This document shows positions 11,216-58,467 of a stretch of DNA of 64,000 bases, piece by piece. Under the pieces are notes generated by a model. That model was not told the DNA's origin. It did not search any database and saw nothing but the letters and a program-made list of their open reading frames with translations. This stretch comes from Mobula hypostoma (taxonomy: Eukaryota). The stretch covers positions 165,666,001 to 165,730,000 of the forward strand of contig NC_086097.1 of NCBI RefSeq assembly GCF_963921235.1. The letters are read 5' to 3'. A program made the translations under genes and the position numbers. Numbering within the stretch: position 1 is the first letter of the stretch; each line of letters starts with the position of its first letter.

Positions 11216-13244
11216 CAACAGAGGTTGGTTCCACCCAATTAAAGTCGAAGTTTATTGTTATATGCACAATTTTATGTACTTACAGATACAATAGAAATCT
11301 TACTTGGAATCTTGAATCATTTTGTTATGATTTAATGAAAAGTCAACCAAAATTTAAAGACTCACAAAACAAAATCAATCCTTTTCTAGTTCCATTTTTA
11401 TTTAATTTTCCTTTACCTCCATTATCTGCCATTCAGTATCTATGATCTCATTGAATGTCAGATCGGACTTGGAGACTGAACACAGGACATGGTACAGACC
11501 CTTTGGCTCATGATGTCTGATGACTACGATGCCAATTAAAACGAATCCTATCTGCTGGCACATGATCTTTATTCTAATTTCCCTGTTTGTTCATGTGTCT
11601 CTCTAAGTACTACTTAAATATATTTATAAAATGTATGTATTAAAAAATAAATAAGCTATTATATCTGCTTCCAGTGTTTTCACCACTTTTTAAATAAAAT
11701 TTGCCTTGTAAATCTCCTTTAAGGTTTCCCCTCTATCTACCCTATCTGCCATTTTCCTGATTCTGTGGTGGTATAATATGCTGATCACAGTGAAGACATC
11801 TGTTTGATGGTGTTGAAATCAAGCCTTGTAGATTGCAACAAAATTCATTTCGTAAGTGTTTTTCCTCATCTCCTGTTCACCCACATCCATTGCGCAGATG
11901 CATGCGTGTGCTAGTGTGCGCACACTTCCTTAGGTTATTTTTGCTTATGTACTCTCCTTGACTGAGTGGTAGCTTTCTTTAGAACTCCTTTATTACTCCC
12001 TGATCATTGTTAAGAAGGCCTGAGTGGTTGTTTTCCCAGATTTTGTAATATCTTTTAAAAATACATCTGCTTCACTGTTGTTTATAAAGTTTGTTGGTGA
12101 GTAGGGGATAGTTAGGATAGTTTATTCTAGTGCACTAAATTTTCATATGCTGGTTCATTCTTATTTGGTATTGGAAGCCAAATTTATTTATTATTTTCCT
12201 TTGTGTATTTATATAAGTATATCCTTTGAAAAGGATATTATTGTAATGTTGAATGAAATACTAGAATTATGGGACTGTGATATAAAGTAACTGGGGTTTT
12301 GTACCTATGGACACCAGATACTTGGGCAGTGTTCAAGAAACAAGGAGAAAATCGTTCTATTAAATAGCAGGGTACTTGATTTAGTCGTTGGTAGTTAAGT
12401 TCCTGTAACAGAAACCAGAATGAAGAACAAATTTATTGTGGGAACAAGAAGGAGGAATTGGTATGAATGTGCTGACCATGGCTTTGATTTTGCATCCACC
12501 TTCTACCAGAGCATGCACTGCTCATCTTGTTATATAACTGTTCTTTGTTTATGGTGATCTTCCTTTTCCTGAAGTCATGGTATTGAAAGGCTACTGCATT
12601 ATGAGCAATGGCCATCTACTACTGTGTAAAGGGGTGGGACAGTGGAGCGGATGTTATGGAGCCAACATTGATTACTGTGCCATAGAAGATGTAGGATTCT
12701 ACTTTTAATGGTAGAGAGAGGGTGCTTAAAGACATGGAAAGTAAGCATCCTTTATCTCAGGAATTAGATGTAAGAAGTGAAGCCATTACCTGCTGTCCTT
12801 TTAAAATGAGTAGCTTGCTATGTTGTTAGGATTTAATTGTATTGGAGGAACCTGGCAAGACCAGGTAAGGAGGGGAAATTTCCATCCCTGAAAAATTAGT
12901 GAACTGGATGAGTTTTTATTGAATTGCTGGAGGAACTCAGTCAGCCAAGCAGCATCTGTGGAGGAAAAGGAATTATCTAGAGTTCCAACCCAAATTGTTG
13001 ATAATTCCTTTCCCTTCACAGATTGAATTGTATTGAACTTCCCGATGGTGTGATTATTTGAAGTCATGACACTTAACCTATACTCTCAGGTTCCAGATAC
13101 TTGTAACTCACTGCTAAGTTCCAATGCCGCTAAGCAACTAAGTGAGGAAATCGTGAACACTTTGGCACACCAACAAGACATGGATTTAGATTGCATCATA
13201 AATGCTCTTTTCAGCATGTATCAAAACACCTTAGAGAAAATGAA

Positions 13245-13422
13245 CACACATAAAAGTTGCTGGTGAACACAGCAGGCCAGGCAGCATCTGTAGGAAGAGG
13301 TACAGTCGACGTTTCGGGCTGAGACCCTTCGTCAGGACTAACTGAAAGAAGAGCTAGTAAGAGATTTGAAAGTGGGAGGGGGAGATCCGAAATGATAGGA
13401 GAAGACAGGAGATGGGAGAAGA
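13245..13422 (-). mobile_element. Penelope-like element 3' end, 5'-truncated
   Basis: pLTR near-identical to those attached to GIY-YIG fragments at 21.5k and 42k. 14-bp TSD TTAGAGAAA(A/G)TGAA at 13231-13244 and 13423-13436. Confidence 0.85.
13304..13339 (-). ncRNA. Minimal type I hammerhead ribozyme (PLE-associated)
   Basis: Minus strand reads AGTC-CTGACGA-A-GGG-TCTCAG-CCC-GAAA-C-GTC-GACT: stem I AGUC/GACU, stem II GGG/CCC, palindromic ACGU in place of stem III. Confidence 0.8.
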
Positions 13423-16560: not shown

Positions 16561-17041
16561 ATTTGTGTCTTTCAGATTTATTTTCTAAAAGACAGAAAAT
16601 GCTGCATTTTTATGCCCATGTCTTTGTGCTGGACTTGAACCTTCTGACATAGAGATTGTTAATACACTGTGTTTCAAGTATAGAGAGGAGGAAGTAAGGA
16701 GAAAATATTTGTAATAATTGTTTTATTACTTTCATACATATCAAAGTACAGTGGAAACATTTTGCTTTGCATGCCATCCATACAGATCATTTCATCATAC
16801 CAATACATCAACGTAAAAGCAATAACTAGATAGAAAGTAGTGTTGCAGTTACAGAAAAGGTGCAGTCCTGGCAAGATCTGTGGATTAAAAAAAAGCATAA
16901 ATATTTCAGTTCTGCTTCTCTTTAGCAGCTTGAAGCCCTATGCTTTGAGTCATGTGGTGTGTCAGCTTCCTAAATAATGTAACTATTTCATGGACCTTTA
17001 TTTTTAGACTACAAACTTCAGCATCCCAACATGTAAAAGTA

Positions 17042-18563
17042 CAGTGGACTCCAATTAATTGGACACATCAGGACCAGTACATTTTGGCCCGATTAAGTGG
17101 CTGCTCCAGTTAACTGACATTTCATGGAAATAGCTGAAAAGGTTAAAAAAAAAGTCAAACTAAAGCTGAGTAATAAATTATGTATTTAACTGAAATATAG
17201 AACAAATTAGAACATTACTAACGTTAATACAGAGCTATAAAATGGTGTATTAGTTTTAACGCAAACAACAGGAATTCTGCAGATGCTGGAAATTCAAGCA
17301 ACATACATCAAAGTTGCTGGTGAACGCAGCAGGCCAGGCAGCATCTCTAGGAAGAGGCGCAGTCAACGTTTCAGGCCGAGACCCTTCGTCAGGACTTGCA
17401 GCGAGAGGCCGAGTCAATAAAATATGAGTACCTGGGATCCTCAGAAGGTCCAAATTGAGAGGCTTGGAAACGAATCCTAAAGCCAACTGGAGTAAGTTGG
17501 CGACGGAGGCACGTTCCAAGAAAGGATATATGGCTGTGATAGCGAGATTGAGTCAAAGTATGGTCGAAAAGTTGAAGAGCCGAAGAAATTACAGATGGGG
17601 AGCAGTGAGAGATGGTTTCACTGAACTCCCGTCGAAGAGAGGATCTAAACTTCTTCGGTGTAGGCATCACCGGAAGAGGCTTCGCAGTAGTGAATTTAAA
17701 CGCAAACAACAGGAATTCTGCAGATGCTGGAAATTCAAGCAACATACATCAAAGTTGCTGGTGAACGCAGCAGGCCAGGCAGCATCTCTAGGAAGAGGCG
17801 CAGTCGACGTTTCAGGCCGAGACCCTTCGTCAGGACAAAGTCAATCCTGACGAAGGGTCTCGGCCTGAAACGTCGACTGCGCCTCTTCCTAGAGATGCTG
17901 CCTGGCCTGCTGCGTTCACCAGCAACTTTGATGTATGTTGCTATTAGTTTTAAATTGTTATTGATGGAGTTATCTATCCAGTGTACACTGTTGTGTTCTT
18001 TTGACTGTAAATGAACAAAATCAGTGTAGACATCTTGTGCAGATAACAGACAGCCTTCATACAATGCTTTGGATGATTCCATCCTACAAATCTTCTTTTT
18101 CATTATAACATTCAAGATGATTGTTGATACCTTCAAATTTTTTGTAGTCCCTGCATTGTTAAAATAGTGAAATCGTTCCATTTTCACTCTGGTCGTTTCT
18201 GGTATCTCCAAGCTTGAATGCTTGCAATCCCAGTAAGCAAGGCAATTATGAATTGTCTTAATGCTTATTTCTCACCAACTGTCCATGACAAAAATCACTG
18301 CTTTCTGAACACAAATACATTCAACTGATGCTATTTAAAAACTGTTTGCTTTAAACATGGTGTAGTGTCTTAATGGCCATGCAAGTGTGTGTGACTGATG
18401 CTACTTAAAAACTGTAGATCAACAATCTCCTGTCCCAATTAAGTGTCCCAAGTAAACTAAGATAACCCTAGCTGTTTTCTCAATTAGTTTTAGTTCTTTA
18501 AGAGTTGTCCCAAATAAGTGGCTGTCCCAATTAATCAATGGCCCAATTATCTGGAATCCACTG
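17042..18563. mobile_element. Tc1/mariner-pogo (Tigger-like) non-autonomous DNA transposon, interrupted by a PLE
   Basis: TA-CAGTGGACTCCAATTAATTGGAC ... GCCCAATTATCTGGAATCCACTG-TA: 19/23 TIR match and TA TSD. Partial left-end copy at ~20485-20660. Confidence 0.8.
17260..17941 (-). mobile_element. Composite Penelope-like insertion: two direct pLTRs around an ORF 5' segment, plus a third inverted pLTR
   Basis: 12-bp TSD TATTAGTTTTAA at 17248-17259 and 17942-17953. Hammerhead cores at 17361-17396 (-), 17802-17836 (-), 17845-17878 (+). Perfect 98-bp inverted repeat 17738-17835 / 17845-17942. Confidence 0.88.
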
Positions 18564-20480: not shown

Positions 20481-20711
20481 AATTGCAGTTAATGGGGACA
20501 CATTGAGACCAGTGCATTTTGGCCCAATTAAGCATCTGCCCTAATTAACCAAAGTTTCATGGAAATAGTGAAAAGGGTATAAAAAAAGACAAACTACTAT
20601 TTAATTGAGTAACAAAGCATGTATTTAACTGAAATACAGAATAAATTAGAACACTATCAAAAGTGCTGAGAAAATTTACAAGGATGTTGCTGGATCTGGA
20701 GGATCTGATTT

Positions 20712-21550: not shown

Positions 21551-22208
21551 AGCAACACACATCAAAGTTGCTGGTGAACGCAGCAGGCCAGGCAGCATCT
21601 CTAGGGAGAGGTACAGTCGACGTTTCGGGCTGAGACCTTTCATCAGGACTAACTGAAGGAAGAACTAGTAAGAGATTTGAAAGTGGGAGAGGGAGGGGGA
21701 GATCCAAAATGATAGGAGAAGACAGGAGGGGGAGGGATGGAGCCAAGAGCTGGACAGTTGATTGGCAAAAGGGATATGAGAGGATCATGGGACAGGAGGC
21801 CTAAGGAGAAAGAAAAGGGGGAGGGGTGAAAAAAAACCCAAAGGATGGGCAAGGGGTATAGTCAGAAGAACAGAGGGAGAAAAAGGAGAGAGAGAAAGAA
21901 TGTGTGTATATAAATAAATAACAGATGGAGTACAAGGGGGAGGTGGGGCATTAGCGGAAGTTTGAGAAGTCGATGTTCATGCCATCAGGTTGGAGGCTAC
22001 CCAGACGGAATATAAGGTGTTGTTCCTCCAACCTGAGTGTGGCTTCATCTTTACAGTAGAGGAGGCCGTGGATAGACATGTCGGAATGGGAATGGGATGT
22101 GGAATTAAAATGTGTGGCCACTGGGAGATCCTGCTTTCTCTGGCGGACAGAGCGTAGGTGTTCAGCAAAATGATCTCCCAGTCTGTGTCGAGTCTGCGCT
22201 CTGTCCGC
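21551..22208 (-). mobile_element. Penelope-like element 3' end (GIY-YIG C-terminus, 3' UTR, pLTR with hammerhead at 21615-21650)
   Basis: RL.DHFAEH..PVATHFN..LRLEEQHLIFRLGSLQPDGMN; core CTGATGA..GAAACGTC on the minus strand. Confidence 0.88.
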
Positions 22209-24075: not shown

Positions 24076-24601
24076 AAAGAGAAATTACACACTGCAGATT
24101 GCAGTGAGCATAATTTGAGAGAGGTATATTTAGAAGTTTTGTCCACAGAACATCACTGTGGTACTGAGATAAGTTTTGTTTAAATTAAGAATAGGCTTAG
24201 GATGGGATACATGCACTTCATTGTGCCTTGTCCAAAAATACAGAACTTTTAGATAGATGCCAATATATCTAATAAGGAATTCAGGCAAAAATTCTTGTTA
24301 GAGTGTGGAACTTGTTACCACACAGAGCAGTTGATACTTTAAAACTGAGCTATTTATGACAATCTGGATAAGTACATTCTGCAAGAGAGAGAATATGTCA
24401 ATGGAGTGAGTTATTCTGTGGGGAGACCTGTGTACACGGTGTCTCTGCCACCCACTTACGCTGATCCCAGAATCATACAGAATGATGTAACATTCTGTGT
24501 AAATTTTCCGTCATCTATAGATGGGTGTAGTTGAGATCTTACTGTTTTACAAAAGTACTGCAGGTTCTGGAAATATGAAATAAAAACATAAAACCTTTGC
24601 A

Positions 24602-24793
24602 ACACACTCTAAATGCTGGAGGAACTCAGCAGGCCAGGCAGCATCTGTGGGGGGAAAAAAGTACAGTCGACGTTTCAGGCTGAAATATAGATGGAATTTT
24701 TTTTCCATAGATGCTGCCTAGCCTGCTGAGTTCCTCCAGCATTTTGTGTGTATTGTTTGGATTTCAAGCGTCCGCAGATTTTCTCTTATTTGT
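24602..24793. mobile_element. Palindromic Penelope pLTR insertion
   Basis: Inverted pLTR arms; 15-bp TSD CATAAAACCTTTGCA at 24587-24601 and 24794-24808. Confidence 0.85.
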
Positions 24794-42050: not shown

Positions 42051-42828
42051 AACAACACACATCAAAGTTGCTGGTGAACGCAGCAAGCCAGGCAGCATCT
42101 CTAGGAAGAGGTACAGTTGACGTTTCGGGCCGAGACCCTTCGTCAGGACTAACTGAAGAAAGAGCTAGTAAGAGATTTGAGAGGGGGAGGGGGAGATCCA
42201 GAATGATAGGAGAAGACAGGAGGGGGAGGGATGGAGCCAAGAGCTGGACAGGTGATTGGCAAAAGGGATATGAGAGGATCATAGGATAGGAGGCCCAGGG
42301 AGAAGGAAAAGGGGGGGAAGGAAAACTCAGAGGATGGGCAAGGCGTATAGTCAGAGGGACAGAGGGAGAAAAAGGGGAGAGAGAGAGAAAGAATGTGTGT
42401 ATATAAATAAATAATGGATGGGGTACGAGGGGGAGGTGGAGCATTAGCGGAAGTTAGAGAAGTCAGTGTTCATGCCATCAGGTTGGAGGCTACCCAGACA
42501 GAATATAAGGTGTTGTTCCTCGAACCTGAGTGTGGCTTCATCTTTACAGTAGAGGAAACCGTGGATAGACATATCAGAATGGGAATGGGATGTGGAATTA
42601 AAATGTGTAGCCACTGGGAGATCCTGCTTTCTCTGGCGGACAGAGCATAGGTGTTCAGCAAAATGATCTCCCAGTCTGCGTCGGGTCTCGCCAATATATA
42701 GAAGGCCACATTGGGAGCACCAGACGCAGTATATCACCCCAGCTGACTCACAGGTGAAGTGTCGCCTCACCTGGAAGGACTGTCTGGAGCCCTGAATGGT
42801 GGTAAGGGAGGAAGTGTAAGGGCAGGTG
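42051..42828 (-). mobile_element. Penelope-like element 3' end with a complete GIY-YIG domain and a hammerhead (42115-42150)
   Basis: FTCESAGVIYCVWCSQCGLLYIGETRRRL..EH..HFN..EEQHLIF..QPDGMN (ORF 42444-42770). Confidence 0.92.
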
Positions 42829-43710
42829 TGGAATGTACAGTTTTTTACCCATCAGAAGTGTAGAAGCAACGCCTGATAATGACAGAGCAATCACGTCTGT
42901 CTGTGAACTTAGGGCAGAAGTCGCTAATAAGGGAAGTTTCTCCTGTTCCACCTGAAGCATCCGAAAATGGCCATTGTAATCAGCCTGCACCATAGTCTCC
43001 AAGGCATTTTTTTGGTATTGTACCAAGTTTTTACTTTCTAATCCCTTCTATCTACACAATGTCCATATCCCACCATTCTGTGCTATCTATGAACCTCTTA
43101 AATGCCTCTATTGGATTTGCCCCCACTGCCACTCCAACAAGGCATTCCAGGCATATATTAATCTAACTTGTTTAAACCATGGCTGGTCTCCTGCAGAAAT
43201 GTGGTACACAAATTTTCAGTTCTTCTTTGTGGTTCTGGTAGAACAAAAGCACTTGCACCAGGATGACCAAATAGCTAATACTCAGATTTCAATGGGTAAA
43301 ATAAAAATCAGCACTTTTTGGTCTGTGGAGTGCCTTCTATTGATGTTTTAGTAAAACAAAGTGTAGGTCACATCCTTGCCCTAAACCTATCTTGCATACA
43401 ATTTTTTTTAAATTTCTAGGTTATTACTGAGCCTTGCATGGGACTCTTACTGTAAATCAATGACTATCTGTGCTATCCCATTCTTGTGGCAAGGCAATGG
43501 GTATACAGTAATTTTGAATTGAAATAAACAAAACACTATTTCTAAACAACCAACTCAAAAGAAAATCTCAGCAATGTTTCTCAAAAGCAGTACTGAGAAA
43601 AATTAAAATGAAGTATCTTTTGCGTTATTAAGAGCCTTCTATTGAGGGCTTAGAAAAACTGAGAGTGTAGTTCACACACTTAGGCCAAACCTAACTTGCA
43701 TCTTGAAGTT

Positions 43711-43911
43711 ACATACATCAAAGTTGCTGGTGAACGCAGCAGGCCAAGCAGCATCTATAGGAAGAGGCGCAGTGGACGTTTCAGGCCGAGACCCTTCGTC
43801 CCTGAAACGTCCACTGCGCCTCTTCCTATAGATGCTGCTTGGCCTGCTGCATTCACCAGCAACTTTGATGTATGTTGCTTGAATTTCCAGCATCTGCAGA
43901 ATTCCTGTTGT
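43711..43911. mobile_element. Palindromic Penelope pLTR insertion
   Basis: 15-bp TSD TTGCATCTTGAAGTT at 43696-43710 and 43912-43926; arms join at ~43800 inside the hammerhead. Confidence 0.9.
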
Positions 43912-44399
43912 TTGCATCTTGAAGTTGTTTTGTTACAGACATTCTGTTTATTATTTATCTTTGGTGTATTGTAATCTGAGTCACAATCAAAGACAGACCA
44001 CATGGTTTATTGTGACTTTGTTTTCCTCCATTTAACGTCAGAGTTGTCTTTGCGGGTAGCTCCTAAGTAAAACATTGAATGAGCTGGCCTTAAACCACTG
44101 ACATGCATTCCTGTTTGTCTGTTGCCAGTTTTGCAAAATTTGGATTTTTTTTTTCCCTTGCAATGTCTGTAAACAGGGTTCAGTTTTCATGATGTAATTT
44201 CTGGCAAAAGCTTTTTAATTCCTTTGCCAATTGTGTTAAAACTTAGAATCACTTCATGAGATGAAATGAGACACTTCCATTAATGTAATGGTTTTCAAAG
44301 CTTTTGGGATGTTCCAAAGCTCTTTACAGCCAAAAAGCTGAAGGGAAGTGCAGAAAACACCACTGTCTTGTTGCACACAGTAAGATCCTGTGAGTATCA

Positions 44400-50179: not shown

Positions 50180-53100
50180 CAACACACAGCAGGACAGGCA
50201 GCATCTATGGAAAAGAGTGAAAAGTCAATATTTTTGGCTGAGACCTTGGAAAGAAAGAGAAGTCAGTGTAAGAAGGTGGGTTGAAGGGAGGAAGGAGTAC
50301 AAGGTGGTAGATGATAGGTGAAACCAGGGAAGAGGGTGAAGTAAACAACTGGAAAGTTGATTGGTGAAAGAGATAAAGGGCTGGAGAAGGGGGAATCTGA
50401 TTGGAGAGGACAGAAGAAAGGGAAGGAAGGAGGAGCAGCAGAGGGTGATGATGGGTTTGGTTCATACCATCAGGTTGGAGGCTACCCAGTTGGAATACAG
50501 GGTGTTACTCCTCCAACCTGAGTGTGGCCTCATTGTGGCAGTAGAGGAGGCCATGGACTGACATGTTGGAATGGGATTGGGAAGTAGAATTGAAATGGGT
50601 GGCTACCCGGAGATCCCAATTTTCCAAGGACCCTAGACACCTTCAAACTATTTACTGACCAACCTCTAACTCCAACTCCAGCCTGGAGCTTGATCAACAG
50701 CACCTCTAGGCCGAGACTTTACCCTCTCTTCCCCTCTTCCCCTCTTCTCAGATATTACCAACTCTCTTCCTCTCTCTAGTCCCAGCTCTCACCCATGCCA
50801 GGTCTTCACAATTTCCTCTGACCTACTCCCTTCCGAGGCAGAATGTCCTGTACTCAGTAAGGGCCTTACCTTTATCCCCCTACATCCACACCTCAGTGAG
50901 TTCCATGCCCGCCATGATGCTGAGCTCTTCTTCTGTTGCCTCTGACTCTGAGCCTACTTCTTTGGCAAGGACTCTCCAGCCTGTACTGATCACCCCTTCT
51001 CCTGTCTTCAACCCTCCTACCCTTCCAGGACACCCCGCTCTGGTCTTCTGCTTGCTCTCAATCTTTTTATTGTTAATTGCCAATGAGACATCAACAGTCT
51101 TGACTTTAACCCTTCTTTCTCCAGTTGTAACCTCACTCTTTCTGATCATGCTGCTCTCGCTCTCTCAGCACCATCAAACCCACAGATAATGGGTGCTATA
51201 GTAGTCTGGCGTACTGACTTCTACCTTGCTGAGGCCAGGCAGCAACTCTCAGACACCTCCTCTCACTTGCCCCTCAAACAGGACCCCTCTAAAGAGCAAC
51301 AGGCCATTGTCTCCCACACCATCATCAGTGTTAACGCTGTGGATCTCCCATCCACAGCCACCAACCTCACAGTTCCCTTACCCTGCACCTCCCGTTTTTA
51401 CCTCCTACCCAAGATCCACAAACTTGCCTGTCCAGGTGGACTCGGTGTTTCTGCTTGTTCCTGCCCCACCAAACTTGTATCTGCATACCTCACCTCTGTT
51501 TTATCCCCCCACTGGTTCAGTCCCTCTCACCTACATCCGTGACACTTCCCACACTCTTGATCTTTTCAATGACCTTAATGTTCCCTGACTTCAATTGTCT
51601 CATTTTCACTATGGATGTCCAGTCCTTCTACACCTCCATCCCCCCATCAAGAAGGCCTTGTAGTTCTCTGCTTCTTTTTGGATACCAGACCCAACCAGTC
51701 CCCGTCCACCACCACTCTCCTCTGTCTGGTGGAACTAGTCCTCATCCGCAATAATTTCTTCTTTGGCTCCTCCCACTTCCTTCAAGCAAGCGGTGTAGCC
51801 ATGGGCACCTGCATGGGTCCCAGCTCTGCCTGCTTTTGTTGGAATAATCCATGTTCCAAGTCTACACCGGTATCGCTTCCCAACTCTTCCTACGCTACAT
51901 CGACAACTGCATTGGCGCTGCTTCCTGCACCCATGCTGAGCTCATTGACTTCACCAACTTTACCTCCAACTTCCACCCTGCTCTCAAATTTACTTGATTC
52001 ATTTCTGACACCTTACTCACTTTCTGGATCTCTTTGTCCCCATCTCTGCAGACAGTCTATCTACGGATATATCTTATAAACCTATTGATTCTCACAGCTA
52101 CCTGGACTATACCTCTTCCCACCCTGTCACTGGTGAAAATGCAACCCCCTTCTGCTCTTAGGATGTGGCTTTTCATTTCAGAACTGTTGTGATGTTGTCC
52201 TCATTCAAAGAAAGGGGCTTCCCTTCCTCCACCATCAACACTTCCCTAACTGGCATCTCTCGATATTGTGCACGTCTGCCTCACCACTTTCTCCCGCCGC
52301 CACATCAGGAATAGAGTTCCACTAGCCTCCGCATCCAGCACTTAATTCTCCATAATTTCCACCATCTCCAATGGGATCCCATCACCAAGCACATCTTTCC
52401 CTCCCCCTGCCCTCTCCCCCCCCACCAGCATTCTGCTTTCTATAAAGATCACTCCCTACATGACTCCATTATTCACACATCCCTCCACTGATACAACCCC
52501 CCCGCCCCCCCCCGTAATTATCCTTGCAAGCAGAACAAATGCCACACCTTCTCCCAAACCACTTCCCTCATGACCATTCAGGTCCCCAAAGAGTCTTTTC
52601 ACCTGTGAGCCTGTTGGGGCCATCTACTGTATCCGGTGCTCTCAGTGTGGCCTCCATTATATCGTGGAGACTCGGCGTAGATTGGGGCACTAATTCACCA
52701 AGCACCTATGCTCCATCTGTCAGAAAAATCGGGATCTCCCAGTAGCCACCCATTTAAATTCTACTTTCTACTTCCCATTCCAACATGTCAGTCCGTGGTC
52801 TCCTCTACTGCTGCAATAAGGCCACATTCAGGTTGGAGGAGTAACATCTTGTATTCTTTCTAGGTAGCTTCCAACCTGGTGGCATGAACATTGATTTTTA
52901 GAACTTCTGGTAATTGCCCCCTTCACCATTTCTGTCATTTCCACTTCCCTCTCACCTGCCCATTTCCTACCTCCTTTCTCTAGCCCTTTATCTCTTTCAC
53001 CAATCAACTTCCCATCTCTTTACTTCACCTCTTCCCAATCTCCCAGTTTCACCTATCACCTACCACCTTATACTTCTTCCCCCCACCTTATTAATCTGAC

Positions 53101-53255
53101 TTATCCTCTTGCTTTCCAGTCCTGATGAAGAGTCTTGGCCAGAAATGTCAACTGTTTACTCTTTTCCATAGGTGCTGCCTGGCCTGCTGAGTTCTTCCAG
53201 CAATTTTGTGTGTGTTGCTTTGGATTTCCAGCATCTGCAGATTTTTCATGTTTAT
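50180..53255 (+). mobile_element. Degenerate Penelope-like element (RT, GIY-YIG, pLTR) with an inverted 3'-end copy at its 5' side
   Basis: FYLLPKIHK, MDVQSFYTSIP, GVAMGTCMGPS, LRYIDN (YIDD-derived) at 51397-51910. GIY-YIG remnant ~52600-52912. Degenerate hammerhead 53118-53153. Inverted copy 50180-50620. Confidence 0.85.
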
Positions 53256-54039
53256 CATTTCAAGGCTTTGGGCTACCATTGTTAAATGACTTGCTGATGG
53301 GAGGAGGGGACTATTTAGGTGCAGATTCAAGGAGACTTGAAAGATGTGGCAGAGTTGTAGCCAAGAAGCTTATCCAAGGCATAATTATACTCATTGAAAA
53401 CTTTTCCTAATGCCGCACTGCAACAGCTTGAAATAGAATTGGCACTGGAAAATTTTGGCAGTCCCCACAGAAGATAAGTGTTTTTGCAGAAGATGAGCTT
53501 CCTTGGCATCTCTGAACACAACAAGGCAAGGGAACTCATCAGGGCATCACACCTTACTAGGTGTGCATTGGCAACTCTTTGGAGCAACCTTCCTTCCACT
53601 CTGCACCATGTGGCTATGCCTTATCACAGAATGAGCAAAAGGCTATTCAGCACACCAGCTCCACGTAGTCTCACTGCAAAAGCAGTCCAGTTAGCCCTAC
53701 TCCCTTGTCCAGTCTCTTCAATTGGTTTCCCTTCAGATACTTACCCACATTCCTGATGAAAGTTACGATTTACTCTGCTTCACTAAAACCTCTTGACCCA
53801 AAGAACTTGTCATGCAACTTTTGTTTCTTTTTGCCAATGCTTTCATTCTAATTCCCCTTGTCCCTAATTCTTCTGAAGGGTATCAGTTTGTATTTTTTAA
53901 AAAAGTCTATAGTATTTATCAGATACTTTTCTCTGTTCCAAGTTTCTCCAGGCTATCTAAAAACCTGATGTACCTAATCTCTAGAATATTTCACGATCTC
54001 TCCCATTACCCATCCAAAGCCATCCCATCTTTCCTATAA

Positions 54040-54246
54040 CAAGAGGAATTCTGCAGATGCTGGAAATTCAAGCAACACACATCAAAGTTGCTGGTGAACG
54101 CAGCAGACCAGGCAGCATCTCTAGGAAGAGGTACAGTCGACGTTTTGGGCCGAGACCCTTCGTCAGGACTAGGTTAGTCGACTGTACCTCTTCCTAGAGA
54201 TGCTGCCTGGCCTGCTGCGTTCACCTGCAACTTTGATGTGTGTTGC
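54040..54246. mobile_element. Palindromic Penelope pLTR insertion
   Basis: 16-bp TSD CCCATCTTTCCTATAA at 54024-54039 and 54247-54262. Confidence 0.9.
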
Positions 54247-57915: not shown

Positions 57916-58251
57916 TAATGAATTGGTTTACTCCGGTACACCAGTAATATTTATGATGAATATAACAAAAGTTTAACATTATGATGTTATAAAACAGCAA
58001 TTTGCATACACTTGTATAAGTCTGTACTCTTCCACTTTCGTAGACCATCTCCCTGATACATCATCCCACCAGAGAGGTAGAGGCAGGCTGCTCCTACCAA
58101 TGCTGAGTTGCTTTTACTCAACATCCTTGCCCTTTGAAATATGCAAGTTCTTTACCATAGATGCTCTTGCTGTACCTGTTTAGGCAAAAATGGGTATTAG
58201 GGTACAAGGTAGTATGTACGTAGGTACTAAATGGGAAGGGAGAAACTAGAG

Positions 58252-58467
58252 CAACACACATAAAAGTTTCTGGTGAACGCAGCAGGCCAAACAGCATCTC
58301 TAGGAAGAGGTGCAGTGGACGTTTCAGGCCGAAACCCTTCATCAGGGTCTCGGCCTGAAACGTCGACGGCACCTCTTCCTAGAGATGTTGCCTGGCCTGC
58401 TGCGTTCACCAGCAACTTTGATGTGTGTTGCTTGAATTTCCAGCATCTGCAGAATTCCTGTTGTTTG
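58252..58467. mobile_element. Palindromic Penelope pLTR insertion
   Basis: 15-bp TSD AGGGAGAAACTAGAG at 58237-58251 and 58468-58482; arms overlap at AGGG (~58344) inside the hammerhead. Confidence 0.9.

Follow-up and report, generated by a model that had tools for sequence, protein, structure and literature searches.

The 64,000-nt stretch of Mobula hypostoma contig NC_086097.1 that we analysed (hereafter the window, whose own numbering is used throughout) contains a 682-nt insert at 17260..17941, lodged within an older element with terminal inverted repeats (TIRs; Table 1). This host is a putative pogo/Tigger-like DNA element, as suggested by two hallmarks, a TA target site and TIRs that start with CAG. 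In all 11 of the paralogous host-element copies (70-82% identical) the insertion site is empty, both flanks are contiguous and the 12-mer that brackets the insert is present once, from which we conclude that the TSD is real and that the 682-nt unit is one insertion into the older element. A second host-element fragment, 79% identical, is located at 20486-20656, and a weak U4 snRNA-like Rfam match occurs at 53335-53473 (29.7 bits, gathering score 46).

Table 1. Features of the insert and of the element that carries it, in window positions
Feature	Position	Strand	Remarks
Host TIR DNA element	17041..18563	.	Old, non-coding; ~830 bp minus insert; TA target site, TIRs
TSD, left copy	17248..17259	.	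12 bp; identical to right copy; paralogous sites empty
PLE tail	17260..17297	-	~38 nt; direct end only; marks outer RT start site
pLTR copy 2	17260..17396	-	r-4 to ~r132 (BLAST end r138)
Hammerhead 2	17361..17396	-	Minimal type I; stem I 4 bp, stem II 4 bp, helix III loop absent
Truncated PLE ORF	17389..17667	-	91 codons; stop is the UGA in the hammerhead 2 core
ORF-to-pLTR junction	17397..17398	-	Unique; final ORF base 17398, extra A 17397
5' leader of parent	17668..17700	-	pLTR end to ATG
pLTR copy 1	17701..17836	-	r-3 to r132
Hammerhead 1	17803..17836	-	Minimal; stem I 3 bp
Palindrome centre	17836..17844	.	9 nt; majority of letters differ from parent
Inverted pLTR arm	17845..17942	+	98 nt, tail-less; ends at inner RT start site (~r95)
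TSD, right copy	17942..17953	.	12 bp; identical to left copy

The insert is built from a direct repeat of 142 nt (99% identity) at 17254-17395 and 17695-17836, with a spacing of 441 nt, and an inverted repeat of 98 nt at 17738-17835 and 17845-17942 whose arms are 100% complementary around a 9-nt loop. Its direct part amounts to one 441-nt unit plus about 137 nt, with a GC content of 48%. The initial annotation had described a hammerhead-441 nt-hammerhead unit capped by a perfect 98-bp palindrome and enclosed by a single 12-bp TSD, and this layout was recovered in full, with hammerhead-like cores on the minus strand at 17833 and 17392 and predicted cuts after GUC at 17806/17805 (hammerhead 1) and after GUU at 17365/17364 (hammerhead 2). 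Family coordinates (r) refer to a natural tandem copy of the parent element, L067, with r0 at the C of CUGA and the predicted cut before r28; on this scale, the BLAST ends of the unit are r95 to about r-8 for the inverted arm, r-6 to r435 for the direct stretch, and then r-4 to r138. The spacer translates as MPT...CKS* (91 aa), gave no match in a Pfam search, and represents the N-terminus of the 1,016-aa ORF (RT plus GIY-YIG) of the parent, confirming the proposed origin from a Penelope-like element (PLE); the unit also displays the join between pLTR and ORF at the 5' end of the autonomous parent, as the annotation had recognized. The boundary between ORF and second pLTR does lie near 17396, where it had been placed, but the stub itself ends at 17398 and is followed by one extra A at 17397 (Table 1). 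A typical Penelope insertion, as described in PMC3846280 and PMC8557442, combines a pair of direct pLTRs with an inverted pLTR that is shorter by about 37 nt, plus a tail and a TSD, the tail being a concept set out for PLEs in PMC11167929 and PMC8557442, and because the same arrangement is found here we regard the palindrome as an ordinary PLE inverted pLTR. The outer layout of the unit (inverted pLTR, two direct pLTRs and tail) is that of a textbook PLE insertion with most of the ORF gone. Further solo or fold-back pLTRs of the same family and of various ages are present in the window at 13243-13343, 21551-21654, 42053-42154 and 43703-43915, and more of them at 54038-54246, 58242-58467, 53097-53244 and 24599-24792.

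The first 24 nt of the parental ORF have 576 exact matches in the genome assembly (G000; 3.48 Gb, 200 contigs). The monomer of L067 is 3,516 nt long, and its 1,016-aa ORF has matches to RVT_1 (E 5.7e-5) and GIY-YIG (E 1e-3) that are weak, both falling under the Pfam curated cut-offs, together with a DKG motif and a zinc finger-like C-x4-C-x2-C at aa 883-891 between RT and EN. A Cys-rich RT-EN linker has been described as a Neptune hallmark (PMC8557442), and judged by these motifs the parent is an abundant Neptune-like PLE with RT and GIY-YIG in one ORF. The 5' part of the window unit is 98.2% identical to the nearest fetched copy and its two pLTRs have a single difference (per 91 nt); the earlier view of a young single insertion is upheld, and we conclude that the unit is a real, young, single PLE insertion. 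The Pro/Ser-rich portion of the ORF (r~805-1030) contains a recurring internal duplication of ~210-230 nt in L040, L063, L070, L080, L090, L114 and L116, in the last of which the reading frame remains open (1,081 aa).

An Rfam scan of the window returned no match to a hammerhead family, and the ribozyme call therefore rests on conserved core letters. The GUU of hammerhead 2 is the sole mismatch between the aligned pLTR copies from the hammerhead onward, GUC being the family norm. A nested dimeric hammerhead can be drawn with stems I of 3 and 4 bp and a shared 4-bp helix III; this fold is predicted to lie about 20 kcal/mol above the ensemble when the RNA is taken from pLTR copy 1 onward, and 78 kcal/mol above it with the inverted arm. 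In the other short units (12 of 14 scorable) the dimeric fold is likewise predicted at 20-33 kcal/mol above the ensemble. All of these energies are uncalibrated and take no account of tertiary contacts or of assistance by protein, with the influence of the inverted arm as the one robust outcome, and absolute folding energy was rejected as a verdict on activity for lack of a known-active control. In a read-through RNA, the palindrome arm would sequester hammerhead 1. Two further candidates were rejected: a hammerhead cut at the upstream GUU beside r-4, by hand, as stems I and III are unable to form, and an endless ORF on a 441-nt circle, which is interrupted by an in-frame stop within the core.

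The annotation had gone further and proposed that the unit could behave as a retrozyme. As a functional master, its hammerheads would fold as a dimer and release a 441-nt RNA that circularises and is re-inserted by the PLE, a scheme in keeping with two intact cores that can be drawn as a nested dimer, with accounts that minimal PLE hammerheads cleave weakly as dimers (PMC4209133) and that cleavage by the hammerhead of PAc is protein-assisted (PMC11167929), and with the existence of other units that have same-junction sister loci with different flanks. However, a pattern search of the 3.48 Gb allowing up to two mismatches returned a single match to the window junction, namely the window itself, an outcome that the annotation had named as counting against its proposal, and since the junction is unique we recognize no retrozyme family here. 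The decay of site 2 to GUU and the predicted (uncalibrated) cost of the dimer fold point the same way, as does the report that just one of nine Xenopus dimers was cleaved in vitro (10.64898/2026.07.22.740005), and we consider a functional retrozyme master to be decidedly improbable.

If the window junction is unique, junctions of its kind are not. We identified 123 loci with ORF-to-pLTR junctions (126 pooled records minus three same-locus records from the opposite arm), representing 111 distinct junctions, in a census that excluded blocks below 86-88% identity and loci L274-L279 and that missed L088 as well as one partial junction, the first in L132. The majority of the 123 loci were obtained by anchored searching, which detects nearby junctions only; seven such searches along the ORF, with overlapping tiles, gave 30, 58, 48, 10, 1, 5 and 3 matches, indicating that junctions crowd at r190-300 and that r435 of the window falls in a sparse tail. 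An unbiased sample, consisting of the first 100 places among the 576 ORF-start matches (94 loci), comprised 30 loci with a junction before r500, 7 with a later one, 48 long or full copies (those among L035-L064 judged on 1.5 kb only) and 9 others. Scaling this sample to 576 gives a genome total of roughly 170-180 short units, and about a third of ORF-start-bearing copies were probably made by such template switches. TSDs of at least 7 bp were found at 101 of 121 loci compared to 6% in controls. A literature search, outside of which most subscription journals lay, revealed no account of PLEs mass-producing looped pLTR-ORF-pLTR units. Taken alone the window unit is a dead-end example, and no daughter copy of it is present in the assembly; its value lies in the genome-wide population to which it belongs. 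Among the contigs listed from eight sequencing runs that were aligned to the unit and to a stretch of the parent, none spans the window junction, and the left flank was uncovered in the four runs compared with it, results that bear neither on expression nor on the correctness of the assembly.

The ends of these insertions bear on the nature of the template. At 37 of 108 single-junction loci the locus's own 5' end is within 5 nt of the pLTR-side break of its junction (4.3 expected for a circle), and among loci starting at or before r12 the 5' end matches the locus's own break in 37 of 51 cases, compared to 16.5 after shuffling (p<1e-4). Inverted arms end at their own junction break at 23 of 49 loci (10.4 shuffled). 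These 49 loci include 26 with a short inverted and a long direct end, 17 with the reverse and 6 others; the same start-site class was found at both outer ends in none of the 49, and 43 have complementary ends, a pattern that fits the two RT start sites and the extension of both strands shown for PAc (PMC11167929). The pLTR-side breaks begin with A in 66 of 111 cases against a null of 25.5, and in 36 of 81 against 19 when the r-4 hot spot, which 30 of the 123 junctions fit, is left out. Members of a pLTR pair differ by 2.0 nt per 91 within a locus compared to 4.3 between loci (44 loci). One locus, L162 (G000:C40:114422731-114423045), contains two successive junctions that have the same breakpoints but different A-rich inserts, which fits independent jumps on a tailed linear RNA. 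In one of the two L162 junctions the pLTR-side A is preceded by a G, which is what templating by a cap would produce.

Based on these DNA ends, we favour, with a probability of roughly 0.7, an origin of the window unit as one non-autonomous PLE insertion in which the RT jumped from the 5' end of a short linear RNA to that RNA's own 3' end. The template would have begun at r-4, shortly before the hammerhead, and ended within the ORF at r435, probably with a short A tail, and the two target strands would have been primed at the two start sites of the family, r~135 giving the tailed direct end and r~95 the inverted arm. The first cDNA would reach r-4, jump to r435 with the addition of one extra A, recopy the RNA and stop at the same 5' end; the second cDNA would also stop there, and the joining of both would create the palindrome, whose 9-nt centre is likely to be the meeting point of the two cDNA ends. 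In such a scheme the two hammerheads 441 nt apart would be a by-product, and hammerhead cleavage would be unnecessary. The R2 RT is described as jumping between templates via non-templated additions, including between separate templates (PMC8857657). A one-off template switch had been the fallback of the initial annotation, and the template switch is retained as the best explanation, but it is one-off for this particular junction only, given the share of ORF-start copies that are alike.

Two positions on the template deserve separate mention, r-4 and the predicted cut site r28. We take r-4 to resemble the initiator element consensus, and a transcription start there is a candidate suggested by sequence. 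An internal pLTR promoter has been described in Drosophila Penelope (PMC2377424). The r-4 site is not a universal start, since 31 of the 48 long copies continue without a break beyond the hammerhead, nor is it always the RNA end, since L193 starts at r-39 yet has junctions at r-4; 5' ends of solo pLTRs at r-4 (14 of 47) were set aside, as older subfamilies diverge from the reference just upstream. Some of the 31 long copies reach more than 1.3 kb upstream, the outcome expected of a full-length circle or a multimeric transcript, and seamless copies exceeding one monomer fit either the circle model in PMC4209133 or transcription into multimers. No 5' end among 385 sampled falls at r28 (one is at r27 and three at r25), and none of the 123 junctions is at r25-35. 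This blank agrees with the use of uncleaved RNA by PAc (PMC11167929), although a circle cut by the hammerhead and re-ligated would leave no mark there.

The same start data bear on a quite different origin, in which a full-length insertion later lost 3.07 kb via a DNA-level deletion. The outer architecture and TSD are those of an ordinary full PLE insertion, and internally deleted derivatives are known (PMC3846280). However, only 3 of 30 short units begin upstream of r-62, whereas 31 of 48 long copies do (Fisher p=1.6e-6); the breaks follow the 5' end of the locus in which they occur and show a preference for A; and the window junction carries one added base and no microhomology, all of which makes such a deletion very improbable. 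We give slightly less credence still to a jump onto a second, different broken PLE RNA or to an assembly artefact: jumps of the R2 RT between separate templates provide a precedent for the former, and inverted and tandem PLE structures are said to trouble assemblies (PMC8557442), but three near-identical pLTR copies with matching 5' ends favour one template, and a clean TSD, the absence of the insert from paralogous sites and 120+ comparable loci with flanking TSDs are at odds with an artefact.

Multimeric insertions raise the question of circular templates. They account for 15 of the 123 loci, with letter-identical junctions in 13 of the 15 and a start at the junction in none, a combination that fits circles at those loci, and the same junction occurs on both arms in L050, L124 and L213. 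Successive junctions in L218 differ by a one-base change. In L180 and L208 adjacent units share variants, indicating that some multimers grew after insertion, and multimers were accordingly not accepted as a demonstration of rolling circles. Exact GT-AG joins with strong-looking acceptors were seen at two of the recurrent junctions (2 of 111, 0.24 expected, p~0.02; for both being recurrent, p~0.006, post hoc): r303/r-6, with a 310-nt unit, in L065 (G000:C2:157816557-157817519) and L132 (C50:58412479-58412821), and r240/r-37, with a 278-nt unit, in L244 (C50:7317497) and L245 (C50:8152493). Three of these four loci are multimers, suggesting that back-spliced circular RNAs may serve as occasional templates; splicing as a general cause of junctions was rejected, with GT-AG at 4 of 123 loci only. 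Applied to the window, this reasoning would call for a short RNA, r-4 to r435, closed covalently into a circle by a ligase or back-splicing rather than by the hammerhead and copied by rolling RT for about 1.3 rounds. The multimers, the junctions shared between arms and the GT-AG joins speak for such circles in the family, but the window junction is not GT-AG, part of the multimer evidence reflects growth after insertion, and both the direct copy (r-6) and the inverted arm (r-8) of the window stop near the break at r-4, a coincidence of about 3% on a 441-nt circle. We therefore regard a circular template for this unit as unlikely.

Nine junctions recur in the genome. Four same-junction pairs lie on one contig each, 9 kb to 0.8 Mb apart, with differing flanks and typically one clear TSD; these sister pairs, L217/L218 (C58:37.73 Mb), L201/L202 (C9:88.2, 88.6 Mb), L244/L245 and L249/L250, could be the result of re-mobilisation (local re-insertion) or of two integrations from one RNA or event. 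Sister distances across contigs fall inside the background in a private-SNP test. The r296/r-4 junction is found in four TSD-flanked insertions on three contigs (L150 on C12, L156 and L157 on C22, and L226 on C52), which may represent a small family that has been mobilised or else a hot spot for breakpoints. A contig of run X3 (depth ~170; organism B), of guessed RNA status, contains a short-unit junction joining r373 to ~r-139 (L067:7644-8144), which we note as a weak hint. The multimers and recurrent junctions, including the two exact GT-AG joins, suggest a retrozyme nursery. In its fullest form, the RT of this Neptune family would repeatedly copy 200-450-nt pLTR-ORF RNAs through linear jumps and back-spliced circles and so seed well over 100 independent hammerhead dimers and multimers, a few of them already reused for further insertions, with the window unit a newborn able to excise itself with the help of PLE protein; we offer this tentatively, as an idea with the odds against it.

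Like canonical EN+ PLE insertions, as described in PMC3846280 and PMC8557442, the window unit has a direct pLTR pair, an adjacent inverted pLTR shorter by ~37 nt, a TSD and a 30-40-nt tail at one end, and its parent has RT, GIY-YIG and a Cys-rich linker; unlike them, it retains only 91 codons of the ORF, fused directly to a pLTR start. Its hammerheads share with the minimal PLE hammerheads of PMC4209133 the lack of a helix III loop, the palindromic 15.2-16.2, the extra base before stem II, the short stem I and the dimer-dependent form, the motif itself being the same, but the window has two of them 441 nt apart on one strand. As in the in vitro TPRT of PAc (Anolis Poseidon; PMC11167929), two internal RT start sites bound the tail and both target strands are extended, and the uncleaved RNA template and the ORF 5' region needed on the RNA in that system find their likeness here. 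PAc belongs to a different PLE clade, and the accessible text of that study mentions neither end-to-end jumping nor short looped units. The ends of the present family provide a countable signature of twin priming and 5'-end jumps for the formation of tandem and inverted PLE ends, matching PAc. According to PMC7229834, non-LTR retrozymes are tandem hammerhead repeats present in multiple copies and expressed as circles, and the window unit resembles them (PMC7229834; 10.64898/2026.07.22.740005) in its tandem type I hammerheads separated by a few hundred nt, its PLE relationship without a complete protein, a TSD of more than 4 bp (12 here) and a GC content below 50% (48% here). Its 441-nt monomer is just above the ~170-400 nt given in PMC7229834 and inside the 51-972 given in 10.64898/2026.07.22.740005. 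It differs in having 1.3 units, a single copy, minimal rather than canonical hammerheads and a spacer derived from a PLE ORF, and because it is neither multi-copy nor made of two complete units we have not filed it as a retrozyme despite the similar layout. The 2026 preprint (10.64898/2026.07.22.740005) derives retrozymes from PLEs on the basis of distribution and pLTR trees without settling how they are born; short units such as those described here may be among its shark families. A likely birth step for non-LTR retrozymes can be seen within one genome in the 111 distinct junctions, the 15 multimers and the 9 recurrent junctions.
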